Below, piece after piece: positions 65 through 3,810 of a stretch of DNA of 7,581 bases. The notes beneath the pieces are model-generated. The model ran no database searches. It had not been told where the DNA came from and saw only the letters and a program-made list of their open reading frames with translations. This stretch comes from a virus. Taxonomy: Duplodnaviria; Heunggongvirae; Uroviricota; Caudoviricetes. The stretch lies in the IMG/VR virus record IMGVR_UViG_2541047885_000010. One strand, written 5' to 3'. A program made the translations under genes and the position numbers. The first letter of the stretch is position 1. Each line of letters opens with the position of its first letter.

Positions 65-75
65 GTCCATAAGAA

Positions 76-95
76 AGCCCCTCCGGAGAGGGGCT
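76..95 (-). terminator. Possible weak terminator hairpin for the minus-strand cargo transcript
   Basis: agcccctc (76-83) / gaggggct (88-95), 8-bp stem with cgga loop. On the minus strand it is followed by a T-rich but interrupted tract (tttcttat). Confidence 0.3.
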
Positions 96-440
96 GGAGA
101 GTGGCGCTATGTGCCATTGCATGATGCCGGGTGCCTCCCGGTGAGTTCAGCCCGGTGACACTGAACCCGCGTCATTCTCGTTTTGATAATCAGAGATTAT
201 ACCATCACCAGTCGCCCCTCCGCTCAGGGGGATTCACCATGCCGTTCTCTTTTAACAAATTCGCCGCTAACAGGACAACATTCCGCTTTCTGAGTTGTGA
301 GGAATTTAACACTTCACACCTGTGTGCATTTTCTACAGGCTGATCCCAGCACCACAATACATCGCAGGCAACAGAAGCCAAATGCCCCACCACAGAAAAA
401 ACATGCAATTATGATTATTGTTTACTGCAAAGATGTAGAA

Positions 441-869
441 TCACGGTTTAAAATCCAGCACTCCATTGTGAAATACTTTATATACTTCCGGAGACGGCGG
501 AACTGGTATATCAGCATGCTTCACCGCATTCATCGCTTCACGACATAAATCGGGGTCTCCACCTTCTCTTTTAACCTGTAGCAGAAGACCATTCGGGGCC
601 ATATACATTCTCAGTGAACACTCTTTTCCTGAATACTTACTCGCATCCTTTAACTGTTCTTCTATGGCTTTCCTGACCTGAATGGCATACTGCCTGATTT
701 CTTCACTGGCATCAGGGGTACGTTCCGATGAGCTCAAATTTTGCGACTTTATTAATTTATCTGAGTGATACAGAGAAGCATCATAATTATTTGTCGATAC
801 ATCTTTTGTGCAGCCAGTTGTCAGACTGGCTAATATCAAAACAAGAACTGGTACAGCACGGCAATACAT
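441..869 (-). CDS. Lipoprotein with a C-terminal TolA domain III-like domain (prophage cargo)
   Basis: 142-aa ORF with ATG at 869 and GGAG about 10 nt upstream. N-terminus MYCRAVPVLVLILASLTTGC is a hydrophobic signal ending in a lipobox-like TTGC. The C-terminal ~85 aa (...YSGKECSLRMYMAPNGLLLQVKREGGDPDLCREAMNAVKHADIPVPPSPEVYKVFHNGVLDFKP) aligns closely with my recollection of the E. coli TolA C-terminus (...YAGKTCTLRIKLAPDGMLLDIKPEGGDPALCQAALAAAKLAKIPKPPSQAVYEVFKNAPLDFKP). Confidence 0.8.
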   Translation of the reverse strand: MYCRAVPVLVLILASLTTGCTKDVSTNNYDASLYHSDKLIKSQNLSSSERTPDASEEIRQYAIQVRKAIEEQLKDASKYSGKECSLRMYMAPNGLLLQVKREGGDPDLCREAMNAVKHADIPVPPSPEVYKVFHNGVLDFKP

Positions 870-1147
870 TTATCCATCTCCATATTAACAAGAACAATTA
901 TCTATAAAATATAGTAAATATGCGGGATCCGGGAGGACTTGTAACTATCATCTCCGGATCAGCATGTAGTTTTTATTTTTCCGGATGATATATGCCGCAA
1001 TAATACCTCTGCATACAGATGCCTGCAAATATCTGCGAAGCATCCGGCGAGAATAAACAAGGAAGTCTGAGGCTATCTTATATGATAGCCTGTTGCTCAA
1101 AAGACAATGATTCACTCATCAGAACCAACAACGCATAATGCAGATAA

Positions 1148-1224
1148 TGGACCGCCATCGAGGACTCGAACCCCGCGCAGCCAGCTTCGAAGGCTGGCGC
1201 TCTATCCCGATGAGCTAATGGCGG
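1148..1224 (-). tRNA. tRNA-Arg (anticodon UCG)
   Basis: Reverse complement folds as a cloverleaf: acceptor CCGCCAT/ATGGCGG, D-stem GCTC/GAGC, anticodon stem CCAGC/GCTGG with loop CTTCGAA (anticodon TCG), T-stem CGGGG/CCTCG with loop TTCGAGT, then encoded CCA. 77 nt. Confidence 0.8.
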
Positions 1225-1233
1225 TATGTGATA

Positions 1234-1309
1234 TGGTGGCCCTTGCTGGATTTGAACCAGCTACCTGGCGATTATGAGTCGCTCGCTCTCACCACTGAGC
1301 TAAAGGGCC
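1234..1309 (-). tRNA. tRNA-Ile2 type (anticodon CAU, lysidine-type; formally could be tRNA-Met)
   Basis: Reverse complement GGCCCTTTAGCTCAGTGGTGAGAGCGAGCGACTCATAATCGCCAGGTAGCTGGTTCAAATCCAGCAAGGGCCACCA. Anticodon loop CTCATAA, T-loop TTCAAAT, encoded CCA, 76 nt. Closely resembles E. coli ileX/ileY and the ileZ of Stx phages as I recall them. Confidence 0.85.
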
Positions 1310-1349
1310 GGGCGCAGGATAATAACGGTACGTAACTAATTCTGCAATA

Positions 1350-1688
1350 TCATCCGTTCTGACTGACTAAATCCTGAACTTCCCGAACCGTCTGCTCAAA
1401 ACGTTCAGTCTCCAGCTCAACGCCTGTAGCACGACGGCCCAGTGCCAGTGCAGCTTTAACTGTTGAACCTGACCCCATAAAAAAATCTGCAACCAGGTCA
1501 CCCGGACGACTGCTTGCGCTGATTATCTGCTGCAGCATTTCTGCCGGTTTTTCGCACGGATGTTTCCCGGGATAGAACTGCACCGGTTTATGCGTCCAGA
1601 CATCGGTATACGGCACCTGCGCCGTCACGCCAAAATACCGCCGCAGTCGGCATTCACAACCACCAGCGCATTTAACGTTCAGGCACAA
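1350..1688 (-). pseudogene. 5'-truncated remnant of a beta-class N4/N6 DNA methyltransferase (C-terminal SAM-binding part only)
   Basis: The ORF has no ATG (the ORF track starts it at a TTG). It contains ...HPCEKPAEMLQQIISASSRPGDLVADFFMGSGSTVKAALALGRRATGVELE..., which is the (Q/E)KP plus FxGSGST SAM-binding motif block of PF01555-type methylases. The DPPY catalytic region expected N-terminal to it is absent, and the upstream sequence is an AT-rich porin promoter region. Confidence 0.6.
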
Positions 1689-1712
1689 AAAAACCCGCTC
1701 GACGGCGGGTTT
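1685..1712 (-). terminator. Rho-independent terminator on the minus strand
   Basis: Minus-strand RNA reads aaacccgccgtcgagcggg followed by UUUUUUU (plus-strand A-run 1687-1693). Stem cccgc/gcggg at 1694-1698 / 1705-1709. Confidence 0.55.
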
Positions 1713-2138
1713 AAGCTGTGTGACGAAGTAACCACTCTTAACAGCATAACCAATTTTTTACGTACGTAAACTACTAAATGATATTTGTGAGAATGCCACC
1801 GAGTGTTCAAAACACCACCACAAATGCATAAGAAAACTTCAACAAATAACCAGTTAATAATTTCCGATGTTATTTTTAGTTTGTTTAAATTAAGCTAAAG
1901 AATTATAGAGCACTTATAAATAAGTGCCATTAATATAAATTAGCTAATAGATTTATTTTTGTTCAGACAAGAGCCATGAATAGGATTAGATAGAAAAGGT
2001 TCCGATAAAAATAGAGATCTACTTCACAAATTAAATGAGAAACTAAAACTTACATCTTGAAATAATCACATTGATTAGATGAATATTTATCGCGCAGTGA
2101 CATCATTTTTTAATAATAGTTCAAAAAAAGGGCGTACA

Positions 2139-3221
2139 ATGAAAAAATTAACAGTGGCAATTTCTGCTGTAGCTGCATCAGTACTGATGGCGATGTCTGC
2201 TCAGGCAGCTGAAATTTATAATAAAGACAGTAACAAGCTGGATCTATACGGGAAAGTTAATGCCAAGCACTACTTCTCCTCTAATGATGCAGATGATGGT
2301 GATACTACTTATGCTCGTCTTGGCTTCAAAGGTGAAACCCAAATCAACGATCAACTGACTGGTTTCGGTCAGTGGGAATATGACTTCAAAGGCAACCGTG
2401 CTGAATCTCAAGGTTCTTCCAAAGACAAAACCCGTCTTGCATTTGCAGGCCTGAAATTTGGTGATTACGGCTCAATCGATTACGGTCGTAACTACGGTGT
2501 AGCATACGACATCGGTGCGTGGACTGACGTTCTGCCAGAATTCGGTGGTGATACCTGGACCCAGACAGATGTGTTCATGACTGGCCGCACTACTGGTGTT
2601 GCAACTTATCGTAACAACGACTTCTTTGGTCTGGTCGATGGCCTGAACTTTGCTGCTCAGTATCAGGGTAAAAATGACCGCACTGACGTAACTGAAGCCA
2701 ATGGTGATGGTTTCGGTTTCTCCACTACTTATGAGTATGAAGGATTCGGCGTGGGTGCAACCTATGCTAAATCAGATCGCACTGACGGTCAGGTCGCCTA
2801 TGGTAAGAGCAAATTCAATGCCTCCGGCAAAAATGCGGAAGTATGGGCTGCAGGCCTGAAATATGATGCGAACAATATCTATCTGGCTACCACATATTCT
2901 GAAACTCAGAATATGACCGTTTTTGGTAATAACCATATTGCAAACAAAGCACAAAACTTTGAAGCAGTAGCACAATATCAGTTTGACTTCGGTCTGCGCC
3001 CATCTGTTGCTTACCTTCAGTCAAAAGGTAAAGACCTTGGTGTTCATGGTGACCGAGACTTAGTCAAGTATGTCGATGTCGGTGCTACTTACTACTTTAA
3101 TAAAAACATGTCCACTTTTGTTGATTACAAAATCAACTTAATTGACGATAGTAAGTTTACCAAAACAGCTGGTATTGATACCGACGACATCGTCGCTGTA
3201 GGTCTGGTTTATCAGTTCTAA
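2139..3221 (+). CDS. nmpC: Outer-membrane general porin of the OmpC/OmpF family, NmpC / phage PA-2 Lc type (prophage cargo gene)
   Basis: ATG at 2139 preceded by aaggg. Signal peptide [23 protein letters not shown] then [17 protein letters not shown]..., [18 protein letters not shown], and C-terminal ...VAVGLVYQF with terminal Phe. Opposite orientation to Q, as for nmpC relative to quuD in DLP12. The ORF-track start at 2079 adds 20 non-signal residues and is unlikely. Confidence 0.92.
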
Positions 3222-3409: not shown

Positions 3410-3793
3410 TCAATTAGAATTATTAGCAACGATATCCATATCTAACCGGATATCTAATGCCATTAACATCCCTTCAATTATGCCCTCAGCCTTCTGTAAC
3501 CTTTTCCCGATATAACCATCCGAGCAGCAATGCTTACTTGCCAGTGACATGAATGTCATACCACATACATAATAATCTACTAATAAATCGTGTAAATCGC
3601 TGTTGTTCTTTTTCAGACGGGCCATGCACCCGCAAATGATCATCGCGTCATCGTCACAACATTGCGGGCGAGATTTTACTTTTGAAGGAATTAATCCCTT
3701 AAAACCGGCAGCAATGGACGACCAGGTCACATCCTCATGATTATTTGCCGCCCATGCCCCCCAGCGTTCAAGAACCATCTGAATATCACGCAT
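3410..3793 (-). CDS. Late-gene antiterminator Q, phage 82 / QuuD type
   Basis: 127 aa from the ATG at 3793, with GGAG 7 nt upstream. Begins [26 protein letters not shown]... and has Cys-rich motifs (PQCCDD, CGC, HCC). Matches my recollection of the DLP12 QuuD family. The ORF-track start at 3808 is a TTG and less likely. Confidence 0.85.
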
Positions 3794-3810
3794 CAACTTT
3801 CTCCACAAAA

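Follow-up and report, generated by a model that had tools for sequence, protein, structure and literature searches.

A stretch of viral DNA of 7,581 nucleotides (the window, meaning the whole stretch that was analysed) had been read from its letters as carrying a pair of phage-borne tRNA genes, for Ile with a CAU anticodon and for Arg with a UCG anticodon, between the antiterminator gene Q and a cargo lipoprotein gene, in an arrangement that recalls the ileZ-argN-argO cluster of Stx phages. The locus raises the question of which tRNAs these genes encode, whether they are a native pair, and which codons of the phage and its cargo they could serve.

The two tRNA genes and their neighbourhood

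Over the whole 7,581-nt window ARAGORN called exactly two tRNA genes, at precisely the 1148-1309 interval proposed in the initial annotation, which had overlooked that both lie on the minus strand. Both also gave full-length matches to Rfam family RF00005 (gathering score, 29 bits), argN with 55.1 bits (E=4.8e-10) and ileZ with 70.1 bits (E=3.6e-14), and these scores against the gathering score exclude chance for either call. The RNA-strand sequences are GGCCCUUUAGCUCAGUGGUGAGAGCGAGCGACUCAUAAUCGCCAGGUAGCUGGUUCAAAUCCAGCAAGGGCCACCA (ileZ) and CCGCCAUUAGCUCAUCGGGAUAGAGCGCCAGCCUUCGAAGCUGGCUGCGCGGGGUUCGAGUCCUCGAUGGCGGUCCA (argN). Read along the RNA strand, the genes for RusA, a KilA-N protein and a DUF968 protein come first and are followed by these features:

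3410..3808, minus strand: antiterminator Q, QuuD type (PF06530, E=8e-54; quuD in PGAP; 76% nucleotide identity to 933W Q)
2079-3221, plus strand: OmpC/NmpC-like porin (Porin_1, E=3e-151)
1770..1743, minus strand: pR'-like late promoter, TTTACG-16-TATGCT, in a block (1685..1770) with 78% identity to the pR'/qut/terminator block of 933W
1712..1691, minus strand: conserved intrinsic terminator with a T-run (terminator prediction; its 933W counterpart is found by the same scan)
1350..1688, minus strand: remnant of an N6/N4 DNA methyltransferase, C-terminal part only (PF01555 positions 135-220 of 221, E=2e-23)
1319..1347, minus strand: pT, putative tRNA promoter, TTGCAG-17-TATTAT (both hexamers as in the annotated pT of 933W; one spacer difference)
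1234..1309, minus strand: ileZ, tRNA-Ile2, anticodon CAU, 76 nt with encoded CCA (ARAGORN; Rfam)
1225..1233, minus strand: 9-nt spacer TATCACATA between ileZ and argN, read from the sequence (one of the two common spacer alleles, 44 of 114)
1148..1224, minus strand: argN, tRNA-Arg, anticodon UCG, 77 nt with encoded CCA (ARAGORN; Rfam)
1092..1134, minus strand: argO remnant, 43 nt, equal to argO positions 1-43 (alignment to 933W argO)
1070..1091, minus strand: hairpin AGGCTATC-ATATAA-GATAGCCT, where argO homology ends (sequence and fold)
441..869, minus strand: lipoprotein with a TolA C-terminal domain, the cargo (PF06519, E=4e-23)
65-271, minus strand: STnc100 sRNA (RF02076, 158 bits) with its own terminator at 95..76

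Beyond the window follow a SASA esterase (homologue of 933W L0105) and then holin, lysozyme and Rz. The placement of the tRNA genes between Q and the cargo lipoprotein thus holds as a position, but the porin, the pR'-like promoter with its terminator and the methylase remnant all lie between Q and the tRNAs. With the porin, encoded on the opposite strand, inserted there, the late promoter is found about 1.6 kb from Q and not directly after it.

The methylase remnant is marked by PGAP as a pseudogene missing its N-terminus. In 933W a second terminator corresponds to the tR' end of the StxS RNA at +258 (PMC7547250). It (L001 3361-3389) aligns with about 1470-1500 (minus strand) of the window, which is still methylase coding sequence there (DFFMGSG motif); its T-run corresponds to Phe-Phe codons of the methylase, and that hairpin is absent from the window. 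The second terminator of 933W seems to have evolved from a decaying methylase gene.

Comparison with 933W by blastn gave four blocks of homology: Q (76%), the pR'/qut/terminator block (78%), a tRNA block (91%, 1460..1093) and STnc100 (75%). At 98.7% identity, a region of about 234-261 nt matches 933W, VT2-Sakai and upwards of 230 further records of Stx phages. STnc100 follows stxB in 933W, next to AsxR, and so marks the downstream border of the cargo slot; because the flanking homology resumes at STnc100, the TolA-like gene sits precisely in the slot of stxAB. The proposed likeness to the Stx-phage cluster was correct and even understated, given the same genes in the same slot and orientation, and the PF06519 match in that slot bears out the TolA-like lipoprotein as the downstream cargo. 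This protein has 142 aa, a lipobox (LTTGC) and a gene of 42% GC. Speculatively, the protein could serve as a TolA decoy that counters colicins or filamentous phages.

Three complete E. coli chromosomes contain lambdoid prophages that match the entire window at 99.6% identity. One of these prophages, that of strain AR_0017, spans about 50 kb between btsS and mlrA (yehV), the site used by the O157 Stx1 phage. Outside the window, its portal gene (L003 32686-35270) is annotated as frameshifted, and the prophage may thus be defective. Also outside the window, in the early region, matches to the isrK and C4 antisense RNA families (L002 4653-4841) overlap a Rha-family regulator gene.

As judged from its sequence, pT provides a putative promoter of their own for the tRNA genes, directly upstream of ileZ. 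From its -10 hexamer the GC-rich CCTGCGCCC runs to the tRNA 5' end (pT and CCTGCGCCC together, 1347..1310); the -35 hexamer is weak (3/6) and a consensus promoter scan accordingly does not list it. Activity has been shown in O157 Sakai, where mapping placed a primary start site of tRNA transcription between tR' and stx2AB (PMC7547250). No terminator was predicted between argN and the TolA-like gene by the scan that finds one right after argO in 933W; with the loss of that terminator, pT transcripts probably continue into the TolA-like gene. Expression of the tRNAs is probably low in the lysogen and high once Q antiterminates.

Isotypes and family traits

ARAGORN reports the CAU gene as 'tRNA-Met (cat)', and a tRNA-Met label is also found on some phage records, so an elongator methionine tRNA has to be weighed against the proposed AUA-reading tRNA-Ile. 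The ARAGORN isotype derives from the anticodon only. In alignments, ileZ matches K-12 tRNA-Ile2 at 69 of 76 positions (90.8%) and metT/metU at 51 of 77 (66.2%). Its acceptor stem, GGCCCUU/AAGGGCC, is that of K-12 Ile2 and includes C4:G69 and C5:G68, where metT/metU carry U4:A69 and A5:U68; these two pairs are major identity elements by which E. coli TilS tells Ile2 from Met (PMC11947777). PGAP annotates the same gene as tRNA-Ile in the 99.6%-identical prophage, and all ileZ relatives among 5426 complete genomes bear that label. The methionine reading is effectively refuted by this evidence, and the CAU tRNA is a well-supported Ile2-type tRNA by its sequence, as first proposed, with a predicted lysidine in the anticodon.

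The reported A:C mismatch in ileZ is real. It is pair 27:43, at the top of the anticodon stem, and is marked as non-canonical by cmscan. It was, however, wrongly taken as unusual: A27·C43 is found in the window and in all ileZ alleles, whereas in chromosomal K-12 Ile2 these positions form a G27·U43 wobble. Substitutions in the anticodon stem can compromise the action of E. coli TilS (PMC11947777), and the maintenance of the A·C pair across more than 100 loci suggests that it is tolerated with respect to this enzyme.

A single difference, C48A, separates ileZ from its 933W counterpart (75/76). With this change G15 loses its partner in the conserved 15:48 tertiary pair, and the Rfam score drops from 72.5 to 70.1 bits. 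The exact A48 allele is essentially private, with one occurrence in 5426 complete genomes and none among 114 IMG/VR loci, where 105 of 114 copies are identical to the canonical allele. Even the 99.6%-identical AR_0017 prophage appears to have the canonical C48 (its ileZ scores 72.5 bits, the same as 933W). The window copy of ileZ may be slightly impaired, or A48 could be a sequencing error.

ARAGORN supports the second assignment, a tRNA-Arg with a UCG anticodon, and PGAP lists a tRNA-Arg at this place in the near-identical E. coli prophages. E. coli ArgRS recognises its tRNAs by C35 and G36 of the anticodon plus A20 of the D-loop, and argN carries all of these: the UCG anticodon supplies C35 and G36, and its D-loop AUCGGGAUA has an A at position 20 (our numbering of the Rfam alignment). 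The acceptor end, from the sequence and the Rfam alignment, consists of C1 paired with G72, then U73 and the encoded CCA. The C1:G72 pair had also been noted as unusual; it is real, but it occurs in 933W and in nearly all sampled alleles. Since A27·C43 and C1:G72 are common to 933W and essentially all sampled alleles, both characterise the family and do not reflect errors. At position 73, a minor identity element, the chromosomal Arg tRNAs of E. coli carry A or G. U73 leaves argN without a purine discriminator, as is also the case in 933W argN and nearly all listed alleles. Overall argN differs from 933W argN by a single D-loop base (76/77) and represents the commonest of 21 alleles (25 of 118). 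We know of no tRNA with a UCG anticodon encoded on the E. coli K-12 chromosome.

The argO remnant and the distribution of the array

After a 13-nt spacer 3' of argN begins the argO remnant (GCGTTGTTGGTTCTGATGAGTGAATCATTGTCTTTTGAGCAAC), which the initial annotation overlooked. It retains the acceptor 5' strand, a diverged D-arm and the anticodon arm with loop CUUUUGA, and its 3' half is gone; the blastn homology block likewise stops at nucleotide 43 of 933W argO. Counted by hand, about 27 of the 44 aligned positions agree with argO, and the D-arm part is heavily diverged. A third functional tRNA after argN was rejected: Rfam gave no tRNA match to the remnant even at E<=10, and folding yielded no cloverleaf. 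From its sequence we therefore interpret the supposed pair as a truncated trio and not a native pair. Comparison with the three 933W genes thus leaves two near-identical tRNAs and a fragment of the third. The hairpin at 1070..1091 lacks a following U-tract and is not a canonical terminator.

Decay of argO in place was also rejected, given that the 13-nt upstream spacer is identical to a trio-type allele while the D-arm is heavily diverged. A trio-type spacer beside a diverged remnant is better accounted for by a recombination joint to an older, diverged donor than by mutations arising locally.

Of 5426 complete genomes, 1245 (23%) contain an argN-like sequence and 122 the exact junction of argN, remnant and cargo; ileZ-like genes occur in more than half of the complete E. 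coli genomes. The 118 argN-bearing IMG/VR contigs comprise about 84 Ile-Arg(UCG)-Arg(UCU) trios and about 30 loci with Ile and Arg(UCG) only (about 25%); rare variants lack ileZ, have Thr(CGU) in its place or carry an additional Gly(UCC). Behind the trios we found Stx2A in 22 loci, no cargo (the esterase follows directly) in 10, and several other ORF families. Thus the tRNA array is modular, the slot behind it is a hot spot for morons, and the window represents one recombinant haplotype.

The two-tRNA loci of IMG/VR fall into two independent classes. Class A, to which the window belongs, has the diverged argO remnant followed by the TolA-like gene in 16 of 16 loci; 15 IMG/VR loci share this very remnant and one more has a variant of it, and we found the class A arrangement in no deposited phage genome. 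In class B (L020, L026, L040 and others) the 5' half of argO is intact and cut after about nucleotide 41, and the junction leads without cargo through about 270 nt of short sequence to STnc100 and then the esterase. A mobile-element end was looked for at the class B breakpoint and not found; only a short stretch of unique sequence connects the breakpoint with STnc100 and the esterase. The two independent truncations thus break within about 2 nt of each other, in the 3' strand of the anticodon stem, and their downstream sequences are unrelated. Site-specific integrases classically target the 3' anticodon-stem part of tRNA genes. That the third array position serves as a preferred recombination joint for cargo exchange in the stx slot is a suggestion that rests on two events, and we regard it as unlikely; if true, the tRNA genes would gain, besides decoding, a structural role in moron shuffling, including the gain and loss of stx.

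Allele counts were taken from ARAGORN coordinates; an ungapped comparison of per-site variability with the flanks had 45 of 110 loci in register, owing to indels. Among the IMG/VR alleles, argN varies only in loops or by exchanges between G·U and G-C pairs in the T-stem. Together with the near-invariance of ileZ, we count these confined changes as purifying selection.

Codon usage, function and comparison with known systems

Both tRNAs had been proposed to support the expression of AT-rich or foreign cargo, with a count of AUA and CGA codons as the check. Codon frequencies in the 62 CDS annotated in the AR_0017 prophage were set against those of 60 host genes only (20,501 codons), as follows (per 1000 codons):

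AUA: host 3.8, prophage 7.7 (2x; p=3e-6)
CGA: host 4.1, prophage 6.0 (1.5x; p=0.01); late operon 5.2, not significant
CGG: host 5.4, prophage 11.0 (2x); late operon 13.7 (2.5x; p=4e-12)
AGA, read by argO: host 1.0, prophage 5.9
AGG, read by argO: host 0.7, prophage 4.9

AUA and CGA are thus both enriched in the prophage relative to this host sample. Of the 141 codons of the TolA-like gene, 4 are AUA (28 per 1000, compared with 3.8 in the host sample), 2 are AGA and 2 AGG, and none is CGA or CGG; the porin has host-like codon usage with no AUA and one CGA. For comparison, stxA2 of 933W contains 15 AUA in 318 codons. The idea that the tRNAs serve the cargo consequently stands for AUA in the TolA-like gene, but not for the codons of argN, which that gene lacks, nor for the porin, which uses almost none of the codons concerned. 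ileZ suits both the cargo and the phage at large; argN suits the late genes, through CGG rather than CGA, and does not suit the cargo. The strongest rare-codon enrichment in the prophage, 6-7x, concerns AGA and AGG, the codons of the lost argO. Since the tRNA for the most enriched codons has been lost, selection for codon matching cannot be very strong.

As a whole the locus is best explained, with good probability, as ileZ and argN carried by a non-Stx lambdoid prophage in which they supplement tRNAs for rare codons. Identity, position, conservation and codon statistics are direct results; from them we infer the following mechanism. A single event would have put the TolA-like lipoprotein cassette in place of the original cargo and the 3' half of argO. 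In the lysogen, pT would drive low constitutive transcription of ileZ-argN, and after induction Q-antiterminated read-through from pR' would pass at a high level into the tRNAs and the cargo. Host RNase P and 3' processing enzymes would excise the precursor tRNAs, whose CCA ends are encoded. Host TilS would then turn C34 of ileZ into lysidine (LAU), allowing charging by IleRS and reading of AUA, so that ileZ would act as a third Ile2 gene beside the two of the host. ArgRS would charge argN, the U34 of which could read CGA by Watson-Crick pairing and CGG by wobble. The net effect would be more tRNA for host-rare codons that are about 2-fold enriched in the prophage (AUA, and CGG in the late operon), and the extra tRNAs would aid expression of late genes and morons, including the AUA-rich TolA-like gene. 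Several features speak against supplementation: A48 and A27·C43 in ileZ, U73 in argN, the cargo without CGA or CGG, a CGA enrichment that is weak and absent from the late operon, and the portal frameshift in the closest annotated genome.

Some of these features would also be expected if ileZ and argN were passengers in a decaying cluster of Stx-like ancestry, under no selection and with no measurable contribution. argO is already destroyed, and it was the tRNA for the most enriched rare codons, AGA and AGG. The change in ileZ is private and hits a tertiary-pair position, a methylase pseudogene lies nearby, the closest genome has a frameshift in its portal gene, and the adjacent cargo lacks the codons read by argN. 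However, ileZ is near-invariant (105 of 114 identical) while argO and the spacers vary, argN has the most frequent intact allele, both pT hexamers are preserved, and the two-tRNA form persists without further decay in 122 complete genomes and 15-16 IMG/VR contigs. We therefore consider passengers an improbable explanation, although it is the strongest competitor of rare-codon supplementation.

Some phage tRNAs can act as anti-defence spares, and some toxins target tRNA-Arg species. In line with this general knowledge, ileZ and argN could replace host tRNAs cleaved by anticodon nucleases or colicins, and both the UCG anticodon, which as far as we know is not encoded on the K-12 chromosome, and the poor fit of the Arg codons to the adjacent cargo would suit such a role. 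On the other hand, neither the window nor its flanks showed any nuclease or defence context, the anticodon loop of ileZ equals the host Ile2 loop and would offer no escape from a loop-specific nuclease, and the enrichment of AUA and CGG in the prophage is significant; we regard this role as very unlikely.

Rare-codon supplementation thus remains the best-supported and most likely function, an ordinary one that is already known. Both genes are known as well, being named in 933W, annotated in hundreds of Stx phage records and called by PGAP, and the locus has little significance beyond correct annotation. Its corrective value lies in establishing the CAU tRNA as Ile2-type, the cluster as a truncated trio and the service to the cargo as valid for AUA only. 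The argO remnant, the private C48A, the linkage to the TolA haplotype and the recurrent break in argO are minor additional findings; of these, the linkage between remnant and TolA-like gene marks one haplotype of the stx slot and may help to track non-toxin cargo that replaces stx.

Among the papers searched, nothing relevant to ileZ, argN and argO was found, and the history of these genes given here is drawn from GenBank annotations and general background. The annotation of 933W lists ileZ (tRNA-Ile, AUA), argN (tRNA-Arg) and argO (tRNA-Arg). According to the legend of Fig. 5 in PMC3491183, stx phages have the order rusA, Q, methylase, tRNAs, stxAB, yjhS and lysis genes. The window shares with the Stx phages 933W and VT2-Sakai/Sp5 the genes ileZ and argN, their orientation and position after Q, the pR'/terminator region, the methylase remnant, the pT hexamers, the downstream STnc100 and the esterase (933W L0105/yjhS). 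It differs from them in that three intact tRNAs are present there, whereas argO of the window is a diverged 43-nt 5' fragment with the terminator behind it gone; in having the TolA-like lipoprotein where they have stxAB; in the opposite-strand OmpC/NmpC-like porin between Q and pR'; and in C48A of ileZ.

K-12 tRNA-Ile2 (CAU), whose genes are named ileX and ileY, has the same acceptor stem, D-stem, anticodon loop and T-stem as ileZ, including the TilS pairs. Differences are G27·U43 in place of A27·C43, C48 in place of A48, and positions 20, 26, 44 and 59 (our numbering). The K-12 genes are chromosomal, and ileZ is a prophage-borne extra gene copy.

In the lambdoid phage mEp460, tRNA genes likewise lie downstream of Q and upstream of a moron with a TolA C-terminal domain and the lysis genes. 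There, however, Ile(CAU) is combined with Arg(UCU), so that the argO type is kept and argN is absent; the TolA gene shows 83% nucleotide identity, and an STnc100-like element stands before it and not after it. The sequences upstream of the two TolA genes do not align, and mEp460 was rejected as the direct donor of the cassette. It nevertheless demonstrates the modularity of the tRNA array and the existence of an isolated phage with TolA-like cargo.
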